This document shows, piece by piece, positions 19,401-43,554 of a DNA stretch of 64,000 nucleotides (the first letter of the stretch is position 1; every line of letters begins with the position of its first letter). Source of the DNA: Antedon mediterranea (taxonomy: Eukaryota; Animalia; Echinodermata); assembly GCF_964355755.1 (NCBI RefSeq), contig NC_092674.1, forward strand, positions 14,632,001 through 14,696,000, written 5' to 3'. The notes beneath the pieces were generated by a model. The model made no database searches. It saw nothing but the letters and a program-made list of their open reading frames with translations, and had not been told where the DNA came from. A program made the position numbers and the translations under genes.

Positions 19401-22400
19401 TACTCTAGTAGCTAGATCAACTTTCGTATGCACTTTGAGGTCCAGAGAATTTGACTTCAGAAATTGGTTTAGGGTGGTCAAACAATCATTTTTGGCTTGG
19501 TTACACATTTTGAAAATGTGGCGAAAGGTCAAAAGGTCAGGGTGAAAGGTCATAAAACAAAACACCAATATGTCCTTAAATCTCAACAACCACTGGTCAC
19601 AGCGAAGTAATTTTGGTCTCAAATTGATCAGAAGGTATACATTTATATTCAGTCTAATGGGACATTTTAGTCAAAAATGACCGGAAATGCCATTTCTGAC
19701 CTTTGACCCACACCTCAGGGCATGTATGTATCTCCGTAACTACTGATCGTAGACACTTAAATTTGGTCTTAAATTGTTTGAAATAAATATTTATTATTTG
19801 TAGCACATTTTTAAAAATGTTACAAAAGGTCAAAGGGTCAAGGTCAAAGGTTATATGAACAAATAAAAATAGATACTTGTATCTCGGCAACCACTCGTCG
19901 CAGCAAGTCAATTTTAGTCTCAAAATGTTCAGAAGGCATGCTTTCATATTCAATCTAATGGGACATTTTAGTCAAAAATTATCAGAAATGCCATTTCTGA
20001 CCTTTGACCCACATATCATGGCATCTTCATATCTCTGTAAGTACTGGTCGTAGAAACTTAAATTTGGTATAAAATTGTTCGAAGTATACATATTTACATT
20101 CATTGTAATAGAAAATGTGGTTAAAAGATGAACAGAAATACTATTACTAATGTTTCTAACAAAAAACATATCTCTACATAACTTATCCTTAGACAGTAAT
20201 GTTATGCAATAACTGATACTTTAAATTGTTTCAATTTCAAGTACTAGTTATTGCTGTCCCCAAGAACATTTTGATAGAAACGTCAAGCTCAACAGTTCTT
20301 TTCAGAATGCTAGAAGTAACTTGCCATGTGTATCCGATTAAACTCCCCGGGCATTTATTGTTCAAAGGGGTTTTTAGGGGCAGGGGAGGCATCTTTATTT
20401 GTGGTATAATATGGTAATATGTATAATCAAATAAATACCACCTAGATGTAAACAAAAATACAGCACAATTAATATCAAAAAGTGAAAAAAATGCTTGGTA
20501 AATTGTAGATTATGGTAGTTAATGTAATGTGTTGTGATACAATTATTGTGTAAATGCATGTGGCGGGTGTATTCCACATGGTGTTCTATTAGAGGGAATG
20601 GTGGCGTTTATTTGAGAGAGGCTTTTATTCAAAGCGGGTGTTAATTCGAATAAATACTCTAATTTTAATAATTATAATTCGTTTCTCAACTGATAAAAGG
20701 TACTTTACATGATTCGTTTTCTTCTTTATGCTTTTTAACGAAATGTTTCTGTCTTTTAGAATAAAAGTGACACTGTCATAGATAACATTAAATGGATCTT
20801 CTCTTCCAGGTGCCAGTATAATGATATAAAACAATGACATATCATTATCCTGACACAATTGCACTCATAATGGATCTTCATTCTATCATCTGTTTGTTTG
20901 TGACTACAATTTGACAACAATCTTTTGCATATTTTTAAATGCCAATACATAGCTTCATTACTATTGTACAATATGTCCAGCTTTCCTGAAAACACCCTTG
21001 TGTACTGTAGTACAGTGTTGTAGTATGATTTTATCTGATGCTTTTATTGTCAATGAATTCAGTACCTAAAACATGTCAATAGTGGTATTGATAATAAATC
21101 TCCAGAAACATATATTGTTTTATTATCTACACTGGGAACAGACGTGTATAATATACACCGACAAAACTTATACATATTATGTATAAGTTTTGTCGGTAAC
21201 ATTCAAAAATATTATGCAACAGTGTTACGGAATAATGACAATGAATTGGTCTATTAGTTGTCTGTGATACCTTTTATTACATGATTGTACTTGCAACAGG
21301 ATAGAATGAGGTTTATTCCAGTTATTATTCTTATTATATTAATTTTTTTTTTATCTGGGGTGTATTTATTTGATTATACATGTTACCATTATTACACCCA
21401 AACAAAATAAACGCCTTCCCTGAATAACTAAATGCCCGGACCTTTTATTCGGGTAACTATAGTAAGTTACTTCTAGCATTCTTAACTGTTGAGCTCGAGT
21501 ATTTATTCGAATTAACACCCGCTTTGAATAAAAGCCTCCATTCCCTCCAATAGAACATCATGTGGAATGCCACATGCATTTACAAAATAATTGTATCACA
21601 ACACATTTCATTAATTACCATAATCTACAATTTACCAAGCATTTTGACATAATGTTATTTTTTTATATTAATTGTGCTGTATTTTTTTACATCTAGGTGG
21701 TATTTATTTGATTATACATGTTACCATATTATACCCCAAATAAAGATGCCTCCCCTCCCCCTAAAAACCCTTTTGAACAATAAATGCCCGGGGCGTTTAA
21801 TCGGATACACATGGCAAGTTACTTTTAGCATTCTGAAAAGAACTGTTGAGCTTGACGTTTATATCAAAATGTTCTCGTGGACAGCAATAACTAGTAGGCC
21901 TACTTGAAATTGAAACAATTTAAAGTATCATATTGCATAACATTACTGTCTAAGGATAAGTTGTGTAGAGACATGTTTTTTGTTTGAAACATTGGTAATA
22001 GTATTTTCTGTTCATCTTTTAACCACATTTTCTATTACAATGAATGTAAATATGTATATTTCGAACAATTTGATACCAAATTTAAGTTTCTACGACCAGT
22101 ACTTACAGAGATATGAAAATGCCCTGGTATGTGGGTCAAAGGTCAGAAATGGCATTTCTGATTATTTTTTACTAAAATGCCCCATTAGACGGAATATAAA
22201 TGCATGCCTTCTGAACATTTTGAGACCAAAATTGACTTGCTGCGACCAGTGGTTGCCGAGATACAAGTACCTTTATTTATTTGTTTATATAACCCTTGAC
22301 CCTGACCCTTTGACCTTTTGTAACATTTTTCAAAATGTTTTTCAAATAACAAAATATATATTTCGAACAATTTAAAACCAAATTCAAGTGTCTACGACCA

Positions 22401-22743
22401 GTAGTTACGGAGATAAATACATGCCCTGGGTTGTGGGTCAAAGGTCAGAAATGGCATTTCCGGTCATTTTAAACTAAAATGTCCCATTAGACTGAATACA
22501 AATGTATACCTTCTGATCAATTTGAGACCAAAATTACTTCGCTGTGACCAGTGGTTGTTGAGATTTAAGGACATATTGGTGTTTGGTCTTATGACCTTTC
22601 ACCCTGACCTTTTGACCTTTCGCCACATTTTCAAAATGTGTAACCAAGCCAAAAATGATTGTTTGACCACCCTAAACCAATTTCTGAAGTCAAATTCTCT
22701 GGACCTCAAAGTGCATACGAAAGTTGATCTAGCTACTAGAGTA
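19401..22743. mobile_element. Foldback-type non-autonomous element with about 1.25-kb inverted arms
   Basis: 19401-~20659 is inverted against ~21497-22743. Termini are TA|CTCTAGTAGCTAG...CTAGCTACTAGAG|TA. The arms contain ~300-bp subrepeats, and no coding capacity was found. Confidence 0.85.
21157..21197. repeat. 41-bp perfect palindrome (20+1+20)
   Basis: ACCGACAAAACTTATACATA-T-TATGTATAAGTTTTGTCGGT. Confidence 0.95.
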
Positions 22744-23745: not shown

Positions 23746-24700
23746 TTTGCAACTAGATGCCAACCACCTTCAACAAATATATTACAATATTCACATCATT
23801 TTGATAAAATTGAAGTTAAAATTGAATTTCTCGCCGTCACAATTCCAGAAGCAAATACGTTTGATCATCATAATAGTAACGAAATGAACATGTTCATCCA
23901 CGTCTATTGTGTATTGTATTCAGTGATCAACTATGAGGCGCTACCGATGCTTTTATTTGGTCAAATAAATTCTAGCCACATCAAAACCCACGCAATTTAC
24001 TCTGCCTGGTGCAATAATCGGTTCCGGTAAATTTTTAGACGTAAATGATATTTTGGAGTAGATGATGACTTTTTTACCAAGTGGTCCCAGGGTATAAGAT
24101 GGCCTGAAGAACGATGTTTATTTTGTAATCAACGATAATGTGAATGTGTGGCAACGTTTGACAGGAAAGACGTCCGTGTATCGAGATGATTGTGGGGCAT
24201 GAAACAGTAAAACAGCATCATACTACACGCCATATACTGTATCATAGATTCCAGAGGCTGTTTGTCTTATGTGGATCTTAAAATGGATTATATTGTAAAA
24301 CTTTTAAACTAAAACGAATACCGCTCAAACCGCAACCACTTGAAGAGGAAATAATTGTTTTCCGTAGGCTATACTATGTGACATTAAAAGCAGACAAAGA
24401 GTACAAAAAGAGATTTTATAACGACAACGGAGGAAACAGATGAAAATAGCACTGTGCCACCGCCGAGAGATTTAAAGCATGTGAAGAATGCAAAGTTCAT
24501 GTAATTGTAAGGCATCAAATCAAACCCATCAATTTACCACAGAAAAAATATCGCATATGACATCCTTGTACTTTTTTATGCATATGATACCAAATTCATT
24601 AGGGACATATTCTACAATGGCAAAGAAAAACCGGCATCAGTCGTTTTATATTTTGATTAACAGATATCTGACATTTCAAAGTTTTGCAATCCATCTTCAA

Positions 24701-24948
24701 AACATCCTAGTGTGTTGGGTATTGATGGTATGTTTAACCTTGGAGCCTGTTTTGTGACTACAACAGTCACCACACCAACATTTACAGGAAAACAACAAAT
24801 TTGCATCCTATTATGCTTGGCCCAGTGTTTTTACACTGGGATGGACTTTTCGAGACCTATCAACGATTTTTAACGCATCTGCAGAACATCCTAGTGTGTT
24901 GGGTATTGATCGTACATTTAACATTGGAGGCTGTTTTGTGACTACAAC
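24701..24948 (+). repeat. ~184-bp tandem duplication whose second unit is split by the P element and resumes at 37634-~37760
   Basis: AACATCCTAGTGTGTTGGGTATTGAT occurs at 24701 and 24885. Unit 1 keeps the uninterrupted GTGACTACAACAGTC. Confidence 0.9.
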
Positions 24949-26119
24949 CATGGAGTAAAGAATAAGAGGAGACACAACTCAGCCTAGCTATCCAGTTAAT
25001 CCAATTAGTATCACGCTGTGCGGTAGTGCTTAAGCATAGGGTAATAAACTTCCCATAACGATCCTTTGAAGAACATCCTGTTTACCCGTGCAGCTCGCTG
25101 CAGAGTCGGCTCTGATTACGTAACGCCCTAATTAAGGAAGAAGCCAGGCATGACATCGGTGACAAGAAAAGTAAACAGAGGCTGCGCAGTAGTTTCTAAT
25201 ACATCACAGTGAAGCATGACCTTTGTGCAGTTGTTCATTGTTCTTTGAGCTTTTTTCTCGAAAAAACCGTTTAAAAATCGAGTAATTTTTCACGGAGATA
25301 TCGCAGTTTTTATACCAGCTAACAAATTAATCATATTTTTTATCAAGCCATAGACGTATCATTTGGTAAGTAGAAATTTTACCGTTTAAACAACTTTTTA
25401 ATTTACGAACCCTAGTTCATTTTGTAGCATATAAAAGACTCTAACTTATTTTAAAATCATATTTTAGTGCGCGCAAATGCGCGCATGAAAAAAATTATAT
25501 AATTTAAGCTCATGAATATTCAAAAATACACGTATAGTAGAATTCCAACGACACAATTTCTTATTTTTATTACTATATTTGACATTTAATTTATGTTTCA
25601 GTCTATATTATGACTGTTTAGTTCTTTTATTTTAGTCTGATATTGTATAATTAAATTATTTATGATATTAATATTATAAAATATATGGTTTTTACGATCA
25701 GAAACTTAGAGTTCAGTGAAATTGTAGGACTAAATTATCTATCGTTTAACGATGTGTGGACAGGCCTACTACACAGTAGGCCTATATTTTCGTAATATAT
25801 TATTATTTAATAAATGGCATGGCCTAAATAAGGATAACAAATATTTAATAATATAATGATGGACATATTTAGTGCATACCTTAACCGGTAGGCCTATCAA
25901 TAGGTTAATGCATAGGCGCGCCTATAGTAATAAAAAACAATATCAATAATAGTAGCAATACGTTTTTTATTAATATATTAATAATTGTAATAACGTTAGA
26001 AATAGTATTAGTAGTAATATTTTATTAAAGAAGAAATTAATCAATTGGTTTTAGTTTTCGGATAGTCGTTATTATGAAATATGGTATAAAATATTACGAG
26101 AATATTCGTTTAGTATCAA

Positions 26120-26263: not shown

Positions 26264-27097
26264 GGATTAGGCCAAGTTGAGCCGCCGACAAGTTGAGCCG
26301 CCGCCAGAAAAACGTTATTTTCTATGAAACGCCAAATGCTTACTTTCGCCGGTGCTCGTTTCTATTTAATAGAAGTTCTATTTATATTAATTATTAGATA
26401 TAATAACGATGTATATTCCAAAGTTTATATATCACGGTTTTTAGTATATATTATTAAATATTATAATTAAAGAGAAATAATTATGAATATCTGACTTGTT
26501 TGTAGATTCCAAAATATAAGGCCTAAAACATGACCGAAAGTGATCGTTTTTAGCCAAAAATGACGTAAACATGTTTCCCCCTTAGGCGGCAGTTGTATGA
26601 ACTAGGCCTACTCCATTTTTCGGTAAAATAATTGCATAAAATCACCGTTTTTTAGTGAAATATTCTGTGTATTAACATTGTAAAATTCAATCAAATATGA
26701 TATTAAAAGATAGTAGATAAAAAATAATAATTATTTAACCTCATTCGAAGAGTATCAATACTCTATTACTTATTAGTCCTGAGAGACAACGTGATTTTAC
26801 GCGAGAAAAATATTATGGAGTGCACTGCATTTTTACCTTGAAAGATTAAAAACAATTAAATTATTAAATATGACTACTTTCCTTTGCTGTGTTGTTATGG
26901 CGGTTCAAACCAACAAAATTGTAGTATGTAATTATTATTTATTTTCATGACACAATAAACCTAAAGACCATGAACTTATGTACTAGGAAACCCCTCTATC
27001 ACTACGCGAAATGTCGTAAAAGACGCACTGGGCGTTTCATAGAAATTACCGGCGGCTCAACTTGTCGGCGGCCCAACCGGTCATATCCCGTTTTCCC
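26264..27097. mobile_element. MITE nested in the left arm of the P element
   Basis: Inverted subterminal GCCGCCGACAAGTTGAGCCGCC motifs at both ends and a flanking direct repeat CAGTTCGG (26256-26263 and 27098-27105). The exact ends and TSD length (5-8 bp) are ambiguous. Confidence 0.7.
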
Positions 27098-27293
27098 CAG
27101 TTCGGTACATCGCGGTTAGTAAAACAATCTGCATTAGATAAAGGTCTTTGTGCTATTCCGCCTGTTTAGGCCTAAATAAATATTAGAAGTAGGCCTATTT
27201 TGTTAACTTAAGAAAATAGAATTTAGATTTATAATAATTTATTATTTATAGGCCTCTACTCATTACTGTTTTTATGTCGTTATTTCAGTTTAA

Positions 27294-30200
27294 ATGAACG
27301 AATTACATCAATTGAATCTGGCAAATATTTGCCGGCTATGTCAATGTAACGGTACGACTGAGGAACATCGAAATCGTTCACTACCTTTCAAAAAGGAGAA
27401 ATACAGTGAACTTATCACAAAATGGCTGAATATTGATGTTAGCAACGATGATGAAAGTGTACACCCTCCTTGTATATGCTCAAAATGTGAACGGAAATTG
27501 CGAAGTTGGCGTGATAGGGCAAAGAAAAAGATGCACGTAACAGTTTCAATTGAGGTTAAGCCGTTTATTGCACATTCGTCTTCTGATTGCTTAATTTGTG
27601 GTCCTGCTGCATTAAACCGCGATGTTCTGGAGATTGAATCCATAAAACGAGGCTACATTGTAGTAAAGGAAGAAAAACGCCTAATTTTAATTGAATTTGA
27701 TTCAGCCATTTTACAAAATAAGCGATGCGTTTCTATTCAAAGCAACGGTAACTGGGAAATTGTTATACGAGGTAAAAAAATAGATCATAAAAACTGCGCC
27801 TTTCTTTCAGATATACCAGAAGTTTTGGAAACCGAAAACATTAGCACTTTTCTAGATCTCATATCTATGCCTTTATGTGGTGGTAACCTGATTCCAGCCC
27901 CTTTGAAAATGAAAACTTCTTTTAAGGGTACAAATGGGAAAGAAATTGCCTATGTTGAAGATGACATTATCAGGCATGTTAAGTGCGAGGTTTTTGTAGC
28001 AACCGGTCGCCAATGTAAAGTTTGTCGCGTGTATGGAGTAAATGTTAGAGCGATGACGGCGTATGCACGCAAGAGAACGAAAAACTTCTTAAAAACCGAA
28101 TCATCGTCACATGTGACGTTTTCCGTTCTTTCCGAAGAAGAAAAGAAAAAAAGATTACAGAACATGAAGAAAGATAAAAAACGTCTCACAGCAAGGAACA
28201 AGACACTAACAAATGAAATCGCAGAAATGCTAAACAAGGAATCTGTGAAGTTAAACGACAAACAAAACGATGCATTTTGCACTATTCTAGATGAGTCTAA
28301 ATGTTCGTTGAACTTTCCTGACGGATCTCCAGAAAAACTACTTTTTGAAGAACAACTGCAGGCAGTAGCGTTACGAAACAAGAAAGGAATAAGATGGCAC
28401 CCAGCTATAATGCGCTTATGCATGGCCCTACACACCAAATCTCCTGCCGCTTACCAATTTTTAAAGGAGTCTGGGATGCTTGTGTTACCACACATAAACA
28501 CTATCAGCAGGTACAAGCACTTTACAGATGCTGTAGCTGGTATAAATCCCGATATTTTAAAGCACGTGGCAACAGAGATGAAGATTCATTCTCAAAAGGA
28601 TTATGAAAAGAATGTTGTTATTGCTATTGATGAAATGAACATCAAGAGCGGGATGGTTTATAATCACAAAACCGGAAAAATCGACGGTATGACAGAACTG
28701 GGAGCACTGAATGAAGAACTCAAAACGTTCCGAATGTCAGTAGAAGGACGAAACCAAAGTGAATGCGCAACGCATGTCCTAGTAATCATGGTGATGGGCA
28801 TCTTTACGAGTCACCGATTACCCATTGCATATTACCCATGTCGAGCAATGACAGGGGACCAACTATTTCCAATTATCTGGAATATTGTTGAAGCTCTAGA
28901 ATTCTTAAGCTTAAAAGTCCGTGCAGTTATTGCAGACGGAGCGTCCACCAACAGAAAATTTTTCAAAATACATAGCACTGACGACGACCGACTGCAATAC
29001 AAGACTGTCAACCTGTATGCACGCGATAGAGATATATATTTCTTCTCGGATGTCCCGCACCTTATAAAGACAACACGAAACAATTGGGAGAAGTCTTGGT
29101 CCAGCAGAACTTCAAGAAAACTAATGGTAAGTTATACGTTACCGTATCCAAACCGATAAATCTTAATCGGTTAAATAAATTATTTTTTGTAAAACAAATA
29201 ATAATAATCTTCTTTTGTCCACAGAACAAAGGAAAACCAATCAAATGGTCGCATCTGGTAAAAATCTACGAACATGATATAGGTCTTGAACAGAAATCTC
29301 CTGGACTAAGAATTTTACATAAACTAAAGAACGAGCATATCTACTTGACACCATCATTGCGGATGCGAGTGTACCTTGCTGCACAGGTATTGAGATCAAA
29401 AGCTATGTTAATGAACCTATATGTCACAACCGACCCTACTATCCTGATTTGACATTTAATACTTTTTAACACGTTTTCTCACAGGTACTTAGTAGCACTG
29501 TTGCTAACGCTTTAGAGCTACTTGGTGATGACGAGCTTTCCTCAACGGTACAATTTGTTAGGATGTTCAATCGTTTTTTCGATTGCTTGAACGTTAAGAA
29601 TTCTTACGAGGGTAGGAATAAAAGAAATCCAGACCTTAACCCATACCGCAGCTCCAATGACGAACGCTTTACGGTAGGTCCTCGTCATAATGTCTAGATT
29701 TTTATTCAAATAAAACAAAGTGCAGTTATATTTGCTCATTATTGTATTATAGTAGGTACTGTAAATTTATTTCATGTTATAAAAGAAATGGCTTTTCAAA
29801 TATGTACGGTAATCATGAATGATAAGCCAGCCTACCTACATTCAGACATTTATTTGATAATTTTATATTCTCAGTGGCTGACAGACGTGTTTTTGAAATA
29901 CATCGACGACTGGGAAAATCAGCCTACAGTGGGAACGGGAAACGCAAAACGCTGCTTAAGCGAACAAACACTTACTGGCTTACGGATAACAGGTATGAAC
30001 AATTATAATTAAGTTCGTGACCCGTTAACAGCCTGAATTGTGTCATCAACAACATATATTTTTATATATATGTACAAATAAAAATATTTAAATTAATTTT
30101 CTTTTTAATTCTGACAGTTGTTATATATGCATGTTGTAACGACGCCTTTGGCGTGCCATAATTGTTCTCTCTCTTCTGAATAAATGTTCAGTTGTACACG

Positions 30201-33200
30201 CTGTGTTTAGAGCCCTTACTTTGCATTATAATTTATTATATACAACATAAATTTTGGCGACGAGGATGAGCATGGCAGTTATAATAGGAAAGGTGGAAGA
30301 ATTTGATTCATCTTTAGAAGCTTGGGATTCGTATACCGAACGGTTAGATCAATATTTTGTAGCCAACAAGGTCGATGATGATCGGAAGGTACCGGCATTG
30401 CTTGCACTCATCGGACCGAAAACGTACACGCTACTAAAGAATTTGTGTTCACCGGAGAAACCAGCGACACTGTCTTACGCAGATTTAATTACAAAGCTCA
30501 CGACACATCTTTGCCCAAAGCCATCGGAAATCGCTGAACGATTTCGGTTCTACAAAAGAGAACAGCATAGCGGGGAAAGCATTGCTTCATACATTGCTGA
30601 ACTACGAAGGTTAGCCATTCATTGCAATTTCGGAAACACTTTGACCTCGACACTGCGAGACATTTTCGTCTGCGGGTTGCGTCAAGAGAACATTCAGAAA
30701 CGTTTACTGGCGGTTCATGACCTTAAATTAGATGATGCAATTAAAACCGCTGTAGCTATGGAAACAGCAAGTCGTGATGCTACAGAATTTCAGAAAACAA
30801 GGACACCAAATACTACAGGTGAGAGCAATGTAAATAAGTTTACTACAAAAAATTACCAATCTAAAAGACACCAAGGTCATAAACAAAGTAAAGCATCTAC
30901 ACACTGTTACAGATGTGGTAATACAGGCCATAAAGCTGATCGCTGCAGGCACATACATACTGTTTGCAATTACTGTTCCAAGGAAGGACATCTAGAAAAA
31001 GTATGCATGAAGAAAAAGAAAGACAATAATGTGTCAAAGCCTAACACTGGTAACCTTAAAAAGAATGTACAGTATGTACAGGGAGAGGAAGTCAACTATG
31101 AACCTATGCTATATGCAAATCATAAGTCAAAAGTGGAGCCAATTATAGTGGTTGCATCTATAAATGGAAAGAAAATCCCTATGGAATTGGACACTGGATC
31201 ATCAGTATCACTGATTCCAGAGTTGACCTACAAGAAAGCATTCCAGTCGTTACCATTACAGAAAACTACAATTAGGTTGAAAACATATTCTGGTGAGACT
31301 ATTGTACCAATAGGCATGCTAAATGCTAAAGTGTGTCTTAACAATCATGAAGAAATTGCAGAGTTATTGGTCGTTCCATTGAACGGACCAGCCTTATTCG
31401 GACGTGATTGGCTAAAGAAGTTTAAATTAGATTGGCATGAAATAAAAGCCATTGATGAGGCAAAAGCAACAACTAAAGGTCTGGATGAAATTTTAGAAAA
31501 ACATAAAGCTGTTTTTAAAGATGAATTGGGGAAACTGGAGAATATTAAAGCTAGTATCTACATCACTGAAAACAGCAAACCACAGTTCCACAAGCCAAGA
31601 AATGTCCCATATTCAATGAGGGACAAGGTCGAAAAAGAGCTTGGACGACTACAAAATCAAGAGATTATTAGCCCTGTGAAATACAGCGAATGGGCAGCTC
31701 CCATTGTACCTGTACAGAAGAAGTCAGGGCAAGTTAGAATCTGTGGTGACTTTAAAGTTACAATTAATCCTGTGATGAAAGTAGAACAGTACCCATTACC
31801 TAAAATAGAAGATATCTTTGCATCTCTAGCAGGAGGTCAGAAATTTACAAAAATTGACCTTAAACAAGCATATTTACAGATGGAAGTGGAAGACACTTCA
31901 AAGGAACTGTTAACTATTAATACGCATAAAGGGTTATTTAGATATAACCGACTTCCATTTGGTGTAGCCTCAGCTCCTGCAATCTGGCAAAGAGCGATGG
32001 ACCAGGTACTGCAAAATGTACCCTTTACATCTTGCATATTGGATGATATGATCATCAGCGGAAAAACAACTGAGGAACACTTAAAAAACTTGGACACAGT
32101 TTTAGAGAGATTAGAGAAATACAACTTAAGAGTAAATCGTGAGAAATGTGAGTTTTTCAAAGAGGACATCACATACTGTGGTCATGTGATAACTGAAAAA
32201 GGGTTACAGAAATCCCCTGACAAGATACATGCAGTTATCAATGCGCCAAAACCTGACAACAAACAGCAAATGCGATCATTCTTGGGTTTAATAAATTACT
32301 ATCGTAGGTTTTTGCCAAACTTATCGTCCATAGTCGCACCCCTGAATGAACTCTTACAAAATGAAAAAACTTGGAAATGGACAAATTCATGTGATGAAGC
32401 TTTTAAAGCGGTCAAAGAACTTATAACTTCAGACCAAGTTCTATGCCACTATAATCCTGAACTAACAGTTAAACTAGCCTGTGATGCATCGCCATACGGC
32501 CTTGGTAGCGTTCTTTCACATATTATGCCAGACGGAAAGGAAAGACCAATTGCATTTGCTTCTCGCTCCTTAACAAAAGCTGAAAAGGGCTATGCCCAAA
32601 TAGATAAGGAAGCATTAGGACTTTATTGGGGAATACAAAAGTTTCATACTTACCTGCATGGCCGACATTTTACTTTGGTTACAGATCATAAGCCGCTAGT
32701 AAGCATCTTGCATCCACAAAAGTCAATTCCATCAATGACTGCTGCAAGACTACAAAGATATGCCCTTTACCTATCTGGACATACATATGATATCGAATAT
32801 CGCAACACGCACGCTCATGGGAATGCTGATGGATTGAGTAGATTGCCTATACCTACAGATGTGATTGATTACGTCGATGAGGCATCTACATTCTACACCT
32901 CCCAGATTGAAAGGTTGCCGATATCAAGTACAGAAATACGGAAAGAAACACAGAAAGATCAGATTCTGTCACACGTATTAGATACTGTTTTAAAAGGGAC
33001 TAACAAACTTCCTGACAAAGAAGCGTACACACCCTACAAGCGCCGTCTTACAGAACTTACTTGCCATCAAGGGTGTTTAATGTGGGGAAATCGAGTACTA
33101 ATTCCAGATAGACTTCGTGCTGCTATTCTTAATGAAATACATGATGGACACATTGGGATTGTTAAGATGAAAAACTTAGCTCGCTCTTACATCTGGTGGC

Positions 33201-34832
33201 CTAACATTGATTGCGAAATTGAACAAGTTTGTAAATCTTGTATCGGTTGCCAGCAAACAAGCAAAATGCCAAAATCCGCACCAGTACACCCTTGGGAGTG
33301 GCCATCTGCCCCATGGGATCGCTTACATATAGATTTTGCAGGGCCATTCATGAACTCTATGTTTTTAATTGTTGTTGACGCCCATAGCAAATGGCCAGAA
33401 GTTTATCCAATGAGATCTACTACAGCACAACTGACTATTGAGAAATTGCGAATTATGTTTAGCCAATATGGTATTCCCAGACAAATTGTATCGGACAACG
33501 GTCCTCAATTTAAGTCGGAGGAATTTACAGATTTCATGAAAGCAAATGGTATTCGACATACCACATCATCCCCATATCACCCCAGAACAAATGGCCTAGC
33601 AGAGAGATTTGTGCAAACGTTTAAATTGGCCATTAAGCAAGCAAGAGGAAACAGTTGTTGTTCATTACAGCAACATCTGAGTACATTTCTGTTTAAGTAC
33701 AGAACAACTCCTCATACACTTACCAAGGAAACACCTGCAAAATTACTCTACGGACGCAATCTACGAACGCGTTTGGATCTTTTGAAACCGGATCTAACAG
33801 CTACTGTCTTGAAAGGTCAAGATCGTATGAAGTTTGCAAAACATTGTGGAACCAGTATCCGAGAGTTTCAACCCGGACAATCAGTAATGGTCCGTGATTA
33901 TCGTAACACAAACCAGAAATGGATACCAGCTCAAATACAAGGAAAAACTGGTCCACTATCTTACACAGTTGACACAGGACTTGGAACAGTATGGAGGCGT
34001 CATGCTGATCAACTACACCCAACTATGGTGAATGTCACTCCTACAGAAATATTCACCCAGGATGACCATGTTCCAGAAATACTAAATCCAACAGACGCTC
34101 CACAATCAGATAACCTTACTCGAAATGTTAACGCCGACACACCTGTTACAACTGGCAGCGCATCTCTTACACAAGAAACTGCACCCATACGTCGATATCC
34201 AAAAAGAAATAATATTCGCCCACCAAAGAGACTAGACTTGTAAATAGACATGAAACAAGAAGTTGATTTTAGTTGAACTTTATTATTCATTATTGCATTG
34301 AAAGATATTATACAGAAAACTTTGATTGAAACATTATAATTACGAATGATTACAGAACAGTACAGAACTCTAGAATCTAGTCTTTACTATTCTTAAAATG
34401 GTAGGGAGGATGTGTTATATATGCATGTTGTAACGACGCCTTTGGCGTGCCATAATTGTTCTCTCTCTTCTGAATAAATGTTCAGTTGTACACGCTGTGT
34501 TTAGAGCCCTTACTTTGCATTATAATTTATTATATACAACAACAGTGAAATCGTTTGTTGAGCTCACTAAGTTGTTGCTTGAAATACCGGGAGTAGAATT
34601 TATTTTGAGTCGTAAGTTCAACCAGGATCCGTTAGAACAGTATTTTTCTAAACAACGCAGTGCTGGAGGGCAAAATACAAATCCAGATATCACCCAGTTC
34701 TCCAACAATTATTTAATTTTACATGCTACTGGACGTTGCATCAAAGCTGCAAAAAGAGGAAATACAAGAAGAGAGGGTGAATCAGTCTCTAACTTGCTTG
34801 ATGGAACACCTTTGGCCAAGAAAAAGAAGTAA
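27294..34832 (+). CDS. P-element/THAP9-family DDE transposase with a RAG1-like N-terminal zinc domain, join(27294..29126,29225..29386,29485..29673,29875..29992,34546..34832), 862 aa
   Basis: All introns are GT-AG with consistent phases (0,0,0,1). Motifs include RWHP..SPAAYQFL..LP, IAIDEM, VIADGASTNR, FSDVPHLIKTTRN, MRVYLAAQV, FFDCLN and NQDPLEQYFSKQR. An in-frame TAA lies immediately before the ATG. The last intron contains a Gypsy element. Confidence 0.92.
30119..34541 (+). mobile_element. Intact young Ty3/Gypsy (Mag-like) LTR retrotransposon
   Basis: Identical 129-bp TG..CA LTRs (30119-30247 and 34413-34541), 5-bp TSD ACAGT, PBS TGGCGACGAGGATG (tRNA-Ser-like) and a purine tract before the 3' LTR. 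Confidence 0.97.
30266..34243 (+). CDS. Gypsy gag-pol polyprotein (gag with two CCHC knuckles, protease, RT, RNase H, integrase)
   Basis: Single uninterrupted ORF with LDTGS, ILDD, DAS..EAL..TDHKPL, HHCC, and IDFAG/VSDNGPQF/NGLAERFV. First ATG at 30266. Confidence 0.96.
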   Translation: MSMAVIIGKVEEFDSSLEAWDSYTERLDQYFVANKVDDDRKVPALLALIGPKTYTLLKNLCSPEKPATLSYADLITKLTTHLCPKPSEIAERFRFYKREQHSGESIASYIAELRRLAIHCNFGNTLTSTLRDIFVCGLRQENIQKRLLAVHDLKLDDAIKTAVAMETASRDATEFQKTRTPNTTGESNVNKFTTKNYQSKRHQGHKQSKASTHCYRCGNTGHKADRCRHIHTVCNYCSKEGHLEKVCMKKKKDNNVSKPNTGNLKKNVQYVQGEEVNYEPMLYANHKSKVEPIIVVASINGKKIPMELDTGSSVSLIPELTYKKAFQSLPLQKTTIRLKTYSGETIVPIGMLNAKVCLNNHEEIAELLVVPLNGPALFGRDWLKKFKLDWHEIKAIDEAKATTKGLDEILEKHKAVFKDELGKLENIKASIYITENSKPQFHKPRNVPYSMRDKVEKELGRLQNQEIISPVKYSEWAAPIVPVQKKSGQVRICGDFKVTINPVMKVEQYPLPKIEDIFASLAGGQKFTKIDLKQAYLQMEVEDTSKELLTINTHKGLFRYNRLPFGVASAPAIWQRAMDQVLQNVPFTSCILDDMIISGKTTEEHLKNLDTVLERLEKYNLRVNREKCEFFKEDITYCGHVITEKGLQKSPDKIHAVINAPKPDNKQQMRSFLGLINYYRRFLPNLSSIVAPLNELLQNEKTWKWTNSCDEAFKAVKELITSDQVLCHYNPELTVKLACDASPYGLGSVLSHIMPDGKERPIAFASRSLTKAEKGYAQIDKEALGLYWGIQKFHTYLHGRHFTLVTDHKPLVSILHPQKSIPSMTAARLQRYALYLSGHTYDIEYRNTHAHGNADGLSRLPIPTDVIDYVDEASTFYTSQIERLPISSTEIRKETQKDQILSHVLDTVLKGTNKLPDKEAYTPYKRRLTELTCHQGCLMWGNRVLIPDRLRAAILNEIHDGHIGIVKMKNLARSYIWWPNIDCEIEQVCKSCIGCQQTSKMPKSAPVHPWEWPSAPWDRLHIDFAGPFMNSMFLIVVDAHSKWPEVYPMRSTTAQLTIEKLRIMFSQYGIPRQIVSDNGPQFKSEEFTDFMKANGIRHTTSSPYHPRTNGLAERFVQTFKLAIKQARGNSCCSLQQHLSTFLFKYRTTPHTLTKETPAKLLYGRNLRTRLDLLKPDLTATVLKGQDRMKFAKHCGTSIREFQPGQSVMVRDYRNTNQKWIPAQIQGKTGPLSYTVDTGLGTVWRRHADQLHPTMVNVTPTEIFTQDDHVPEILNPTDAPQSDNLTRNVNADTPVTTGSASLTQETAPIRRYPKRNNIRPPKRLDL

Positions 34833-36756: not shown

Positions 36757-39600
36757 TTTGATGAATGTTGGATTGAACTGATTGCAGTATACTATATACT
36801 AGGCCTACCTGCATTATTTATAACATCTTGGACGCATATAAACTGTATTTGACACCTTAGCGCTTACAGACAATTAGATATAAATTGTTATTATAGAGAA
36901 CAAAAGCTATAGACTATACACCATTTCAGCCTTTACGATCATGAATACGGTACTTTACATTGCATTGCAATATAAACAAGACCGTATTTATAAGTATTTT
37001 TTTATTTTTGAAAACATATAAAATACAACCAAGATTAGGATTAATCTACAACGATCGTACTCTAATATTTAGGCCTAAATTTATCCTCGTAGGCTTAGGC
37101 CCTAAAAACCATGGAGTAAAAAATTATTTTTATTATTTGGTCAAGGAAAAAATACGTCTTTATGAAACTCATTAATCCATCATTATAATAAGTTGTCTGG
37201 AGAGAAATTACCAACATTAATACACAGTAAAACCGTATAAATATAATTCCTTAATAGGTGCCGCATAAAACTCGTATTATTTATTTGTTAATAAAAAGTT
37301 ATCCAGTAGAATGGCGCTGCTTTTTTATAAAATAAACAAGATCGGAATATAAGTTCAGTACACCATCACACAGTATAGCACACCTTTCACGCTTGAACGC
37401 ACATCGCCTAGCAAGAGTATTGTGACGTCCTAACACGACCTAATACGCATGTGTACTTTACACCAAAATTGACCGCGGGCAGTAAACATTGTAATCTTTG
37501 CTAATTGGGTTACGTAACGGCAGTGTTTAGTACCTATTAAATAGTCATTACAAGCATAGCCTTAAGGAAGCGGTAAACACGATGAACTGACTGAACTATT
37601 CAAGTTGTGTCTCCTCTTATTCTTTACTCCATGCTACAACAGTCTATCACCACATCAACATTTACAGGAAAACAACAAATTTGCATCCTATTATGCTTGG
37701 TTCAGTGTTTTTACACTGGATGGACTTTTCGAGACCTACCAACGATGTTTATTGCATCTGCCATGTAAATTACATGGAACTGGAATAGGTGGGTCACAAG
37801 TCATGGGAAACAACTTAATATTTGGTTCAAACAAATGTCGATGTTACTATTAAAGGAAAGAATCATTAAAGAAAATCCTGATTTCTTAGAATACTACTGA
37901 AAATTGGCCACAAATTTGTTAAAATACATAGGCCTACACTATTTTGGTACACAAATCAATTAATACATGGCTGCCGTTTGATTCAAACAACAATTCTTGC
38001 AAGAGCATTATTGTGGGAGGGCGGTATTTACTTGAACTATATTATGCCGCAGATGTATTTTTGGTGTTATACTATATAAGGTTACATGTACAAGTTTTCA
38101 GCGTAGTTCACCGGCGATAGAAGCTAGAGTAAGAGAAGGGTTTGAGACGTTGAAATATATTGTAGATAAATGAAAGAATATGAGTAATCCTCAGATCTCA
38201 TCTCAGTCCCCGTTAACCCCGTACAAGAACCAACAAAAACAAACTATCTGTTTGAAACATTTATTCTGGGACGGTGCGGCCACACGCCAATTACCATTAA
38301 CCCTATGCACATTCATCGTATAAATAACAAACCAACAAAAATAATTACAATCTTTGTTTCAGATGCCAAGGCATGTAAGCAAAATTAAAATTAAATAGTT
38401 TCTTTTTAAATTTAAATACCGTTCTGTTGAACGAACCAACAATATATGTATTAAAATTAAATATCTTAAGTGACTTTTGTTAAATCAATTATTATATCTG
38501 TGAAAACTTGTTACAGTACATGTTAACGTATAATTTAAAGAGCCGAAAGAAAACGTATGCTAACCATAACATCTTTCTAAATCACTCTTAACCTTGGGAT
38601 AGGCGAAAAACAAGAAAAATATCTGAAAATTCCTATCCGGCCCTGTGGTGGCGACCGAGTGCACCTATGTTGAATAACATTGATAAACTCTAAGGTTGAG
38701 AGCGACTGAAAATAATACATTAACATATTACAGTACCATGCGGTACCGTGCATGAAACGGGCATTTCGCTACCAATGTGGCAACCTATACTAATGTGACG
38801 GTCACACTAATCTACAGTAAGCCTGGACCACCGGTAGTGTTTTCATGATAACTACATGCCAACATCATGTTAAATGTTGTTTGGATATTTAATTGTTCGT
38901 TTCATGCAATTTATTTAGTAAAAAACTGCTAAATAAACAGTTCGTTTCATCAACCGGGCACTACCGGTCGTGTTGTTGTTTACGCGTTTTCACAAATGAT
39001 ATACGGTAATAATATTTCTATATTTAACTTGTTTCTAGTAAAAAAATAAATATTAATTCAATTTAACATTGTATTCTATTAATAACATGTATTTTATACT
39101 AATTTATATCATAAAAACACTACTTAATTTACCGGGCGTAGATTAGTACGTGTTATATGATGGCACCATATATTATGATGTCGCCCTCTATAGTATGTAG
39201 GATACCCATAAGGCAACAGAGCTCTAAAACATGGCTTCAGTATAGAAGACCTCACGAATGATTGTGATAACAATGATGTCGAATAACTAAAGAATAAAAG
39301 CATTGTGTTACTAGAAACGTCTCTCATGTATTAAAGAATATTACATGGTGGCAACGGTAGGATTGAAACATATAATAAAGTCAATCGATAAGCTATACTA
39401 GGCTAGAAGAATAAATAGGCTAGCGTACACGCCGCCGCACGAATAGAATAGTAAAACGTGTTGTTGAGAGTACACACGTGACGTGCGGAGAGAACTGAAT
39501 TGGATTTTGTATTCGGATAGCAGAAGGCAAAAAATAGCCCATACACATTTTGTTACCACTGTATACAACAACTGACAATATTAAAAAATTAATATTGATC

Positions 39601-42600
39601 ATGGCGAACCTAAATCAGCCAGAACCATTAAATATATCGACAGGCAACATATCGGAGAATTGGAAGAGATTCAAACAGAGATTTGAACTATATAACATTG
39701 CCAGTGGAATGTCACGAAAACCAAGTGAAACGCAAACGTCATTACTGGAGCTGTGGCTTGGTGGTTATGATGCTTGGCTACCAATCTAAGGGTCCTGGGT
39801 TCAAGTCCTGTCATATGTCAGGGTTTTTTTCTCATGACAATTTACAACTCCACTCCCAAAGACTTAATAATAAGTCTTTGTCTATGTAGAGCATCTTGTG
39901 TATATGTTTGTCTTATATGTTCTAGTGCAGTATATGGAGAGCCATCTCGATAGTGCTTTGCACTCATGGCAATCCTCAGGGTGCTGCACCGCTGTGTTGT
40001 CATGTATGTTTGCCTGAAAATTAAATAAAATAAAATAAAAAATAAAATAAATAAAATACTACTCCATACTATTGGGCAACAAGGCTTAGATGTATATAAC
40101 GCATTTAAATTTGAAAATGAAGCTAAGAAGATGAGATTAAACACAGTTATGCACAAATTTGAGGAATATTGCAACCCCAAGAAAAACATTACATTTGAAC
40201 GACACACTTTCTTTTCACGAAACCAGATACCAGGTGAGAAGATAGACCAATATGTGACCGACCTAAAGAACAAGAGCAAGACATGTGAGTTTGGAGAAAT
40301 TGAGGAATCCCTCATCAGGGATAGAATTGTTTGTGGACTATTGGACAATCAATTGCGTGAACGATTGCTTAGAGAAGATGATTTAAATTTAGATAAGTGC
40401 ATGAAAATATGTAAGGCATCAGAAGCGTCGAGAAACTTAGGGAAAGAGCTCAAAACTGATCACCAAGTAGCGGTAGATCAATTAGGTATGTCTAATAATT
40501 ATAAACATGATAGAACCAAAGATAGAGATAAAAGTAAACCATGCTCAAGATGCACTAGATCACATGAATATGGTAAATGTCCAGCTTTTGGCATGTCCTG
40601 CAATAATTGTGGTAGGAAAAATCATTTTAGTAGAGCATGTAGGTCAAAACGTAATGACAAACAAAAGGGAAAATATATAAATGCACCTAACAGAAGTAAG
40701 AGAAACGTGCATGGTATAAACAAAAGCAATGATAGCGATTGCGACAGTGAAGATGAATCTAATATTACATTTGAAGCAATTAAAATAAGCCAGATAAACG
40801 CTAAAGATGGTGACACAGAAGTGTTCACAAATGTCAAAATTGAAATAAACCGTAACAAACCAACTTTTCTGAAAGTAAAAGTAGATACAGGTGCAGAGGG
40901 TAATATATTACCACTGAGAATGTATAGAGCTATGTTTCCTAAAAACATGAGCAATAATGTACCTAATGATAGATATGTTAACAAATCTAATGTAAAAGTC
41001 ACAGCGTATAACGGAGCACAAATCAAACATTATGGTTACATACACATCCCATGTTACTTCAATAACTTACACACAAATGCAAAGTTTTATATTGCAGAGG
41101 TACAGGGACCAGCTATAATGGGACTACCGACGCTAAAGACTCTGAAGATAATACAGATAAACTGTGCAGTCGAAGTAAATGACAAAATCAAGGATGTAGA
41201 GGACATAAAAAGACTCTATCCAGACAGATTTGAAGGCATTGGCAAGTTTGAGGGTACGTACAAAATAGTTATAGACGAAACGGTACCACCTGTCATACAC
41301 GCACCAAGGTCATGTCCATTAGCGATAAAAAATGACATAAAGGCTGAGTTGGATGAAATGATGAGATTAAATGTCATACAGAAAGTAGAGAAACCAGTGG
41401 ATTGGGTTTCAAGTTTGGCCTACTCACAGAAACCAAATGGGAGATGGCGGATATGTTTAGATCCTAAGGACTTAAACAAAGCTATAAAACGCACATACCA
41501 TCACACACCAACCCTAGATGAGATAACACATAAATTTAGTGGGGCAAAGTTTTTCTCTAAACTAGATGCACGACATGGATATTGGTCCATAAGACTTGAC
41601 AAAGAATCCAGTTATCTTACCACATTTAACACTCCAGGGTTTGGAAGATTCAGATTCCTAAGATTACCATTTGGACTGAATGTCAGCCAAGACGTTTTTC
41701 AACATAAGATGGATCAAATATTGGAGAAATGCATCGGAGCCACAGGCATCGCAGATGACGTTGCTGTATTTGGGAAAACAGAAGAAGAACATGATCGAAA
41801 CTTAATGGACCTGATGGAAACCGCTAGAGAATATGGGCTTGTATTCAATGCAGAGAAATGTGAAATAAAGCGACCGCAAATAAATTTCTTTGGTATGATA
41901 TATGATAAAGATGGAGTACATGCTGACCCAAAGCGCATTGAAGCCATCAGCAAAATAAAACCACCAACGAATGTTAAAGAGTTACAAAGTTTCCTAGGCA
42001 TCGCCACGTATATGAGTCCCTTCTGTCCCAAGCTGTCAGACAAAACAGCACCCCTCCGAGAACTTCTGAAAAAAGATAATGTATTTGAATGGAATGGCTC
42101 ACAACAAAAAGCATTCGAAGAGATAGTCAACAATATGTAACCAGACAACACTGACCTATTTCCAACCTAACAAAAAGTTGAAACTACAAGTGGATGCATC
42201 CCTGATTGGAGTGGGAGCAGCACTCATACAAGACGAAAAAGTTGTTGCGTTTACATCAAAGGCATTAACAGAAGCGGAACAAAGATATGCGAACATTGAA
42301 AGAGAACTACTGGCGGTAGTATACGCAGTAGAGAAGTTCCACACATATGTGTATGGAAACTCATTCATTGTGGAATCAGACCACAAACCGTTAGAGATGA
42401 TCCAACTAAAAAATCTAATGTGTGCACCACCAAGACTACAAAGACTACTAATGAGACTACAAGGATATGATCTGACAATCAAGTATAAACCAGGCAAAGA
42501 AATGGTCCTGGCAGATGCCATGTCTAGATTAAACCCTATAAATGACAGCCAAATTGAAGAAGAAGTAAAGATACAACTGTCATATTTCTCAGAGTCCAAA

Positions 42601-43116
42601 GAAGAAGAAATAAGGCAGAAGACCAAGGAAGACCCAACTCTCATAAAATTGGGAAGTATAATACAGCAAGGCTGGCCAGACAAACTAAAATCTGTACATA
42701 AGACAATAAGACCATACTTCCCATACAGGGATGAACTCACAACAGAGAACGGAATAATACTAAAGGGTAACAGAGTAGTGATCCCAGAAGTCATGAGACA
42801 GGACATCCTAAAACAACTACACACATCCCACTTAGGCATAACCAAGTGTCAACTGATGGCTAAAACATCAATCCATTGGCCCAGTATTAATGAGGAAATA
42901 GAAAACATGATAAAAGCATGCCCATCATGCCAACAACACAAACACAAACAACAACATGAACCAATGTTGAAGAGAAAAATCCCTACCAAAGAATGGGAAA
43001 TACTCGCAGCTGACCTATTCTACATAAATAGAGTAGAATACCTCCTAATAGCAGATTATTACACCAAATATCCAATCATAAGAAAAATTAAGAAACCAAA
43101 TAGATTAGATTTGTAA
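39601..43116 (+). pseudogene. Disrupted gag-pol (SINE in gag, frameshift near 42138, integrase core deleted)
   Basis: VDTGA protease, IADD RT, RNase H and HHCC are present. After ADYYTKYPIIRK the ORF jumps straight to the terminal IKKPNRLDL. Confidence 0.9.
39747..40056 (+). mobile_element. tRNA-derived SINE inserted in gag
   Basis: A-box-like TGGCTTGGTGG, B-box GGTTCAAGTCC, (TAAAA)n tail and TACT duplication. Removing it restores the gag frame TSLLLHTIGQ. Confidence 0.88.
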
Positions 43117-43554
43117 ATAAAACTTATAATTGTTTTATTATGATTGTAATATGATTGATAAATGAGACCCACAGTTTAATTATATTTGTACACCATTATG
43201 AGTAATTAAAGAAGAGGGATGTTATATGATGGCACCATATATTATGATGTCGCCCTCTATAGTATGTAGGATACCCATAAGGCAACAGAGCTCTAAAACA
43301 TGGCTTCAGTATAAAAGACCTCACGAATGATTGTGATAACAATGATGTCGAATAACTAAAGAATAAAAGCATTGTGTTACTAGAAACGTCTCTCATGTAT
43401 TAAAGAATATTACATACGCAGCAATGGTAAAGAATAGGCTATGCTAAGTAAACGCTTAGTTGTTTTTGTTGTTGCTGTTCGGCCTTTCTTTTTTAACATG
43501 GTGGTAATAATTTTCTGTAGAAGTGACTTACCTTTAGTAATTCTTACCTTTAAT

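Follow-up and report, generated by a model that had tools for sequence, protein, structure and literature searches.

In Drosophila P, an RNase H domain with a GTP-binding insertion cuts and joins the element ends, and the HTH and the insertion contact the TIRs. The closest described counterparts of the N-terminal zinc domain (NZD) analyzed here are those of RAG1, Chapaev, and N-RAG-TP. The structure of the RAG1 NZD was first solved in 2026, and the accessible text of that preprint names no lineage besides Chapaev as keeping an NZD-like domain consistently, its occurrence in other proteins being sporadic (bioRxiv 10.64898/2026.01.24.700457). A 2015 paper stated that no other known transposons encode the domain; as far as their accessible text goes, both papers thus confine it to Chapaev and Transib/RAG-line elements. 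N-RAG-TP of Aplysia is described, in passages citing it, as a TIR element with a RAG1 N-terminal-like protein (PMC8355894, PMC8374863). On the side of the P superfamily, the THAP domain normally binds sites near the element ends (PMC3698922, accessible text), and three motifs of the C-terminal domain have been published for P transposase and THAP9 (bioRxiv 10.64898/2026.08.31.747927, accessible text). No NZD on a P transposase was found in the openly accessible portions of the literature searched; there was no P example in those of PMC8355894, PMC8374863, PMC7204232, PMC10462144, PMC13228809, and PMC10027918, and the words THAP and P element are never used in the accessible text of the 2026 NZD preprint (bioRxiv 10.64898/2026.01.24.700457). 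Automatic Pfam labels already pair PF12560 and PF21787 on several database proteins.

Here, we describe an element in the window (the whole stretch of 64,000 nucleotides that was analyzed) which we read, with a probability of about 0.8, as an intact P-superfamily transposon of the cut-and-paste type with an NZD/Chapa double zinc finger in place of THAP. Its features are as follows.

24942-24948, no strand: left copy of the 7-bp TSD (right copy at 37634-37640)
24949-24979, plus strand: left TIR, 31 bp, starting with CATGG, 100% complementary to 37603-37633
26264-27105, no strand: high-copy insert of 842 bp that has inverted ends plus an 8-bp direct repeat, upstream of the transposase and foreign to the P element
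27294-29126, plus strand: transposase exon 1, encoding the NZD, middle domain, coiled coil, HTH (residues 358-406), and N-terminal part of the RNase H domain
27294-27611, plus strand: NZD/Chapa-type double zinc finger, residues 1-106, delineated by Pfam, profile, BLASTP, and model
27618-28088, plus strand: middle domain (unnamed), residues 109-265, with a helix, a beta sheet, and conserved C195, C231, C241, and C244
29225-29386, plus strand: transposase exon 2, assigned to the GTP-binding insertion region from the alignment with relatives, joints (GT..AG) in X1
29485-29673, plus strand: transposase exon 3, joints in X1
29875-29992, plus strand: transposase exon 4, joints in X1
30119-34541, plus strand: Gypsy-type LTR retrotransposon with identical 129-bp LTRs, a 5-bp duplication, and a single 1330-aa frame
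34546-34832, plus strand: transposase exon 5, with the catalytic E798 (PF21789) and the stop codon
35034-36071, minus strand: second gene, 345 aa from ATG, inside the TIRs and convergent, with the three P-transposase/THAP9 C-terminal-domain motifs
37603-37633, minus strand: right TIR, 31 bp, perfect pair of the left TIR
37634-37640, no strand: right copy of the 7-bp TSD, matching 24942-24948

The ends are those of a P-superfamily element: the TIRs are perfect and, at 31 bp, as long as in Drosophila P, the 7-bp duplication is as in Galileo and 1360 (PMC3698922, accessible text), and there is an empty-site copy, a tandem copy of the target upstream, near 24755, with a single copy of the TSD sequence. 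Only two TIR-like matches were detected in the 64-kb window. Minus the nested inserts, the element is about 7.4 kb long, and an Rfam search of it gave no match. The target on both sides (24670-24948 and 37641-37780) is a degenerate, tandemly duplicated reading frame with the pattern GID-x-TFN ... P-x-x-LG-x-x-F-x-H, which may be the relic of a Mutator-type transposase. In three runs, contig depth over the element ends (24949-25600 and 37188-37633) is several-fold that over the coding part, and the ends are joined there to other flanks; this hints at numerous non-autonomous derivatives, although depth of this kind does not equal copy number. Elsewhere in the window, there are a separate long inverted-repeat element (20000-22445) and a second, broken LTR retrotransposon (39151-43415) with 196-bp LTRs that are 99% alike.

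The five transposase exons, joined across GT-AG introns, give 862 codons with no internal stop. The ORF starts at 27294, and an in-frame TAA, the stop pointed out in the initial annotation, directly precedes the ATG. Run X1 has GT..AG joints for introns 1-3 and, for the passage from exon 4 to exon 5, a loose end at the exon 5 start; splice joints are absent from DNA runs X3 and X4. X1 was taken as RNA solely from these joints, none of the runs being recorded as RNA. The X1 contig that covers the NZD is unspliced from 27098 through the NZD and includes no upstream coding exon. It differs from the window at 17 of 1444 letters and may derive from another allele or a sister copy, so that the splice evidence, too, possibly stems from a sister copy. 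A THAP exon further upstream was considered and rejected, given the stop before the ATG, the lack of any upstream in-frame reading into the ORF, and the lack of a THAP match. Both nested inserts have counterparts lacking them: X1 contains sequence without the 842-bp insert, and DNA runs X2 and X5 hold junctions without the Gypsy-type element. The latter element, apparently young, judging from its identical 129-bp LTRs, is inserted exactly at the intron 4 acceptor, where, owing to its 5-bp duplication, exon 5 is still preceded by an AG; thus, the retrotransposon may be removed together with intron 4 by splicing.

The catalytic core is that of a P transposase. Pfam search with the window ORF identified PF21787 (E = 7.9e-25), PF12017, and PF21789 (E = 3.7e-9), and the DDE triad and the D(2)H motif are present (D446, D548, and D587-x-x-H590 in the exon 1 part of the RNase H domain, and E798). 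The model of residues 1-611 matched best the fold of the Drosophila P transposase 6P5A (E = 3.6e-12), and the spliced protein aligned with a relative, P0012, across residues 120-844 (E = 1.6e-166). The GTP-binding insertion corresponds to PF21788 in full-length relatives and was assigned in the window by alignment. Neither PF12940 nor any Chapaev-type family was detected on the transposase pieces, and derivation of the locus from a Chapaev or RAG1L fragment was rejected, the catalytic core being P-type. The N-terminal THAP typical of the superfamily is missing, as is a fused P C-terminal domain. Because of its core and ends, we classify the element as a P variant despite the missing THAP, and consider the identity and lineage of this NZD-headed P transposon very probable.

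The motifs of the C-terminal domain reside instead in the second, convergent gene, for which the ordered motif score is 84, compared with a maximum of 55 in 1000 shuffles (0/1000 reaching it). The window transposase scores 38, and the tails of the 121 core rows do not exceed 45, none of these rows having the C-terminal domain fused. No Pfam, PDB, or atlas match was found for the second gene, and a RAG2-like identity was discarded for want of a RAG2 or kelch match. It would encode a putative detached transposase C-terminal domain acting in trans.

The N-terminus holds eight potential zinc ligands spanning residues 5-102 (27306-27599): C13, C16, C62, and C65 in finger 1, and H5, H94, C99, and C102 in finger 2. 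These correspond in order to the ligands of the mouse NZD (C110, C113, C175, and C178 in finger 1; H102, H206, C210, and C213 in finger 2; bioRxiv 10.64898/2026.01.24.700457, accessible text), with equal spacing except for a vertebrate insertion; the comparison with RAG1 was made with the mouse sequence in PDB. The window NZD is predicted to bind two zinc ions. With residues 1-109 as the query, Pfam reported RAG1_imp_bd (PF12560; E = 7.3e-6, 26.2 bits, cut-off 23.3) above its cut-off and zf-AD (PF07776; E = 1.6e-4, 22.3 bits) under its cut-off of 28; with the whole 621-aa frame, both were weaker and sub-cut-off, zf-AD being marginally first. The best match in a PDB sequence search was the RAG1 NZD (21WB), at a weak E of 0.013. 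BLASTP linked the domain to two RAG1-core proteins (E = 3e-12 and 1e-11), one of them being P0123 (29% across residues 5-102). The AlphaFold model of the domain (pLDDT 87.6) has helices at residues 3-9, 34-45, and 63-77, the last one basic, and lacks the vertebrate H2 helix; a homodimer prediction for residues 1-106 scored 0.00, which we read neither way. The RAG1-like zinc domain proposed in the initial annotation is therefore real, on the strength of the eight ligands, PF12560 above its cut-off, and the profile and BLASTP matches, and the motifs quoted there were located at residues 5-102. The likeness seen in a KKEK stretch is present in the window, but this stretch lacks conservation within the P family, and the match could in part be due to chance. 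The reported lack of a THAP signature was confirmed: Pfam found no THAP match in the window ORF, and six-frame translations of the element, whether the nested inserts were kept or removed, gave no match to a THAP profile derived from eight THAP proteins (best E = 8.9).

The window transposase belongs to a family. Word-based searches with the window protein as the query retrieved only P0001, a near-identical, N-truncated crinoid model, and the family surfaced only through a HMMER scan and a core search from P0012. The HMMER scan of residues 1-106 against 1.84 billion representatives yielded 136 matches; among the 74 that were at least 200 aa long, Pfam identified P catalytic families in 15, a RAG1 core in 3 (2 above the cut-off), and THAP in 1. 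This THAP-bearing match, the toadfish protein P0135, consists of THAP, NZD, and the middle domain without a core, and the lancelet protein P0002 has three NZD copies and the middle domain, likewise without a core; both are candidates for domesticated genes or mis-joined gene models. The core search from P0012 gave 362 proteins. Among the best 120 of these 362, local profiles detected the NZD in 30 and THAP in 8, never the two together; of the 82 with neither, 57 were too short to judge and 25 were long. Four of the 30 NZD relatives had seeded the NZD profile, and four were N-terminally partial. Pfam search of the other 26 NZD-P proteins detected THAP in 0/26, while the THAP-positive control worked. 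In total, 41 other proteins join the NZD to a P core (15 from the HMMER scan and 26 more). The named carriers come from crinoids, sea cucumbers, sea stars, sea urchins, a brittle star, lancelets, Clytia, and Hydractinia. An intron-free NZD-P gene of 890 aa was read on a contig (metagenome locus L001) that is too short to reveal TIRs or a second gene.

A core tree was built from 64 rows, with 57 short rows left out; it is unrooted and includes no outgroup. The 31 NZD rows, together with one NZD-less lancelet protein, fall on one side of a branch with SH-aLRT of 100. A second group unites the 8 THAP rows and 4 rows without a head, and the third consists of 20 head-less rows. FastTree on all 121 rows agreed with this tree. 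Head-less long P transposases of molluscs and hemichordates (P0174, P0179, P0188, P0195, P0211, P0220, P0228, and P0254) often begin with a short basic stretch. The middle domain is present in 31/31 NZD rows, 24/25 long head-less rows, and 5/8 THAP rows; an atlas search with the corresponding region of P0012 gave no match. Considering that this domain is common to all three groups, the groups differ in the occupant of one slot, and the NZD is positioned as THAP is in related P transposases, ahead of the same middle domain. In 27 proteins, NZD and core identities co-vary (rho = 0.39, 0/2000 permutations), as expected if the fusion is old and the two parts were inherited together. THAP as the ancestral state is taken from the literature (accessible text of PMC3698922, among other sources), not from the unrooted tree. 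Hence, of the earlier statement that the NZD replaces THAP, the shared slot stands, but not a direct one-step swap, since the third group has neither head. An ancestor would have lost THAP and gained the NZD in the same slot once, early, the NZD then being inherited with the core.

By analogy with Drosophila P, the RNase H domain and the GTP-binding insertion of the window transposase would cut and join the ends, the HTH and the insertion would contact the TIRs, and the detached C-terminal domain might be supplied in trans by the convergent second gene. To this machinery, the NZD would probably contribute positive charge, as an accessory module that assists in keeping hold of the DNA ends. In the helix that follows C65, the net charge is +7 (median, +6 across 37 P-type and +6.5 across 6 RAG1L-type domains), and such a basic patch (H4) is absent from ZAD (bioRxiv 10.64898/2026.01.24.700457, accessible text). 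Because the NZD fills the THAP slot and its long helix is basic, we favor this accessory DNA-gripping role over a protein-interaction or regulatory one, while placing DNA binding as the NZD role just short of even odds. A shared subterminal binding site was sought, and none was clear (best match, 10 bp, E = 0.12).

A serious contender, which we rate well below an even chance, is that the NZD is a protein-interaction or regulatory scaffold, engaged in host factor binding, localisation, turnover, or self-association, DNA recognition being left to the middle domain, HTH, and GTP-binding insertion alone. The 20 long relatives without both heads keep the middle domain, as this reading would have it; the NZD paper, in its accessible text, favors a regulatory scaffold and calls the role undefined (bioRxiv 10.64898/2026.01.24.700457); published work ties both protein level and the synapsis pathway to the first 215 residues of RAG1; and finger 1 shares the fold of the dimerising ZAD. 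The conserved basic helix and the THAP-identical position, however, suit nucleic-acid contact, and the mouse NZD is a monomer (same preprint, accessible text). Since the 20 long relatives carry neither head, neither head seems to be required for end recognition, and the DNA-gripping NZD that we favor is, judging by these proteins, probably accessory.

A second alternative, which we consider improbable, concerns the origin of the domain: a ZAD-derived finger could have gained the extra ligands independently, the likeness to RAG1 then reflecting a remote shared single-zinc ancestor and no transfer between superfamilies. Both fold searches were indeed topped by ZAD: Foldseek of the domain model returned ZAD structures only (best E = 0.21), and the VIA search matched a ZAD with Z of 6.1 and rmsd of 2.9 over 64 aligned residues (model range 11-81). 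21WB was not listed by either search, its presence in those fold libraries being uncertain. The three helices of the model would correspond to H1, H3, and H4 of the NZD. For 11 of the 26 NZD-P proteins, the best N-terminal Pfam match was zf-AD, and for 7 it was RAG1_imp_bd, the remaining 8 matching neither family; the cut-off was passed by 5 for the RAG1 family and by 1 for zf-AD. Finger 1 of the NZD is reported to resemble ZAD, and zinc-free models to match the NZD poorly (bioRxiv 10.64898/2026.01.24.700457, accessible text), so that the fold and single-sequence Pfam results fit an NZD and add no support for it.

The ZAD matches, though, span only residues 11-81, while the alignment to RAG1 extends over both fingers and includes every ligand as well as the intervening D-x3-[IV]HP motif, and pairwise comparison with RAG1L proteins gives E of about 1e-11. 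A profile of 22 P-family rows, selected for resembling the window domain rather than RAG1, retrieved 6P5A (E = 4.5e-19), 21WB (4.9e-9), and the ZAD of M1BP (7PO9; 2.2e-3), aligning the ligand columns of both fingers to 21WB; a domain-centred profile gave 1.4e-17 for 21WB versus 8.8e-4 for ZAD. In both cases, the E-value for RAG1 is more than five orders of magnitude better. Among 37 P-type NZDs, the finger 1 cysteines are present in 37/37 and the finger 2 ligands in 31, 31, 33, and 31, respectively; the strict eight-ligand pattern holds in 24/37, compared with 6/6 RAG1L-type domains. With 22.3 bits against a cut-off of 28 and four extra conserved ligands, the window domain falls outside ZAD. 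The profile check proposed in the initial annotation thus gave significant RAG1-N similarity, ahead of ZAD, with THAP absent; a best match to ZAD or THAP devoid of RAG1-N likeness, named there as the adverse outcome, did not appear in the sequence and profile searches, whereas the fold searches gave ZAD only and single-sequence Pfam was split. We conclude that the ligand pattern and profiles support a complete double zinc finger of the NZD/Chapa type and speak against a divergent THAP.

A local chimera or annotation artefact, that is, a Chapaev or RAG1L fragment inserted in frame before one dead P copy, might be suspected in an element with two other nested insertions, but it is refuted by the family data and retains hardly any probability, given the 41 other NZD-P proteins across five echinoderm classes, lancelets, and hydrozoans, including the intron-free 890-aa gene, the grouping of NZD-P proteins on the core tree, and the continuous frame covered by one X1 contig.

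The NZD is also found on RAG1-core proteins among the same HMMER matches, and the view that the domain was shuffled between transposon superfamilies holds up, with NZDs on both P and RAG1 cores; on the sequence evidence, it is clearly shared between unrelated cores. Four further proteins (P0046, P0049, P0057, and P0272) combine the NZD with a shared C-terminal region that contains a D-N-E-Q motif and has no Pfam catalytic match; they possibly represent a fourth transposase type carrying the NZD. The suggested bearing on the origin of the RAG1 N-terminus is conjectural. The domain phylogeny (103 rows, then 54 rows; about 105 columns) is mostly unresolved and names no donor. Grouping of the 37 P-type domains was not rejected (p-AU = 0.565), which does not demonstrate a clade, and RAG1L was not placed inside the P-type domains; no identified Chapaev or vertebrate sequence was included, and the tree that had been called for gives neither donor nor direction.

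It is conceivable, if unlikely, that the NZD is a portable end-recognition module and that an old THAP-less P lineage of cnidarians and deuterostomes was the reservoir from which it was captured by a Transib-type element, giving rise to RAG1L, with P0046, P0049, and P0057 as the fourth carrier. If so, the RAG1 NZD would be what is left of a DNA-binding head, whose ancestral job could be studied in NZD-P elements. Irrespective of the donor, a widespread NZD-P lineage contradicts the 2015 paper and the 2026 preprint on which transposons carry the domain, undoes the case for the domain as a sign that Chapaev and RAG descend from a common ancestor, and provides a third candidate source of the RAG1 NZD. 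It also shows that THAP, normally the sequence-specific DNA-binding domain of P transposases, is dispensable to them. Because P transposition assays exist, NZD-P elements are a simple test bed for NZD function.

Compared with the P superfamily (Drosophila P 6P5A/6PE2, Galileo, 1360, and THAP9), the window element has the same HTH, RNase H domain with DDE and DxxH, and intron-containing gene, and shares the GTP-binding insertion, as seen in its relatives. It differs in lacking THAP, in having an NZD and an extra middle domain N-terminally, and in encoding the C-terminal domain motifs in a separate convergent gene, not in the transposase. N-RAG-TP, compared by second-hand description, is described as having only RAG1 N-terminal-like sequence, unlike the window P transposase. 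Chapaev, compared via papers only, has the Chapa domain (type I) on a CMC/Transib-related core, sometimes with a RING finger, whereas the window core is P; no Chapaev sequence was identified among the matches of this analysis. ZADs (zf-AD, PF07776), usually found on C2H2 transcription factors, share the finger 1 fold and four cysteines with the window NZD but bind one zinc, dimerise, and lack the basic H4 patch, whereas the window NZD has four further ligands and the basic helix. The NZDs of RAG1 (mouse residues 89-223, 21WB) and RAG1L have the same order of eight ligands, with an N-terminal His and a His-Cys-Cys finger 2, helices H1, H3, and H4, to which the three helices of the window model, the last one likewise basic, would correspond, and the same location at the protein start. 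The window domain lacks the vertebrate H2 insertion, as does invertebrate RAG1L. In RAG1, the NZD is followed by a RING finger and a Transib-type core; in the window transposase, it is followed by a P-type core.
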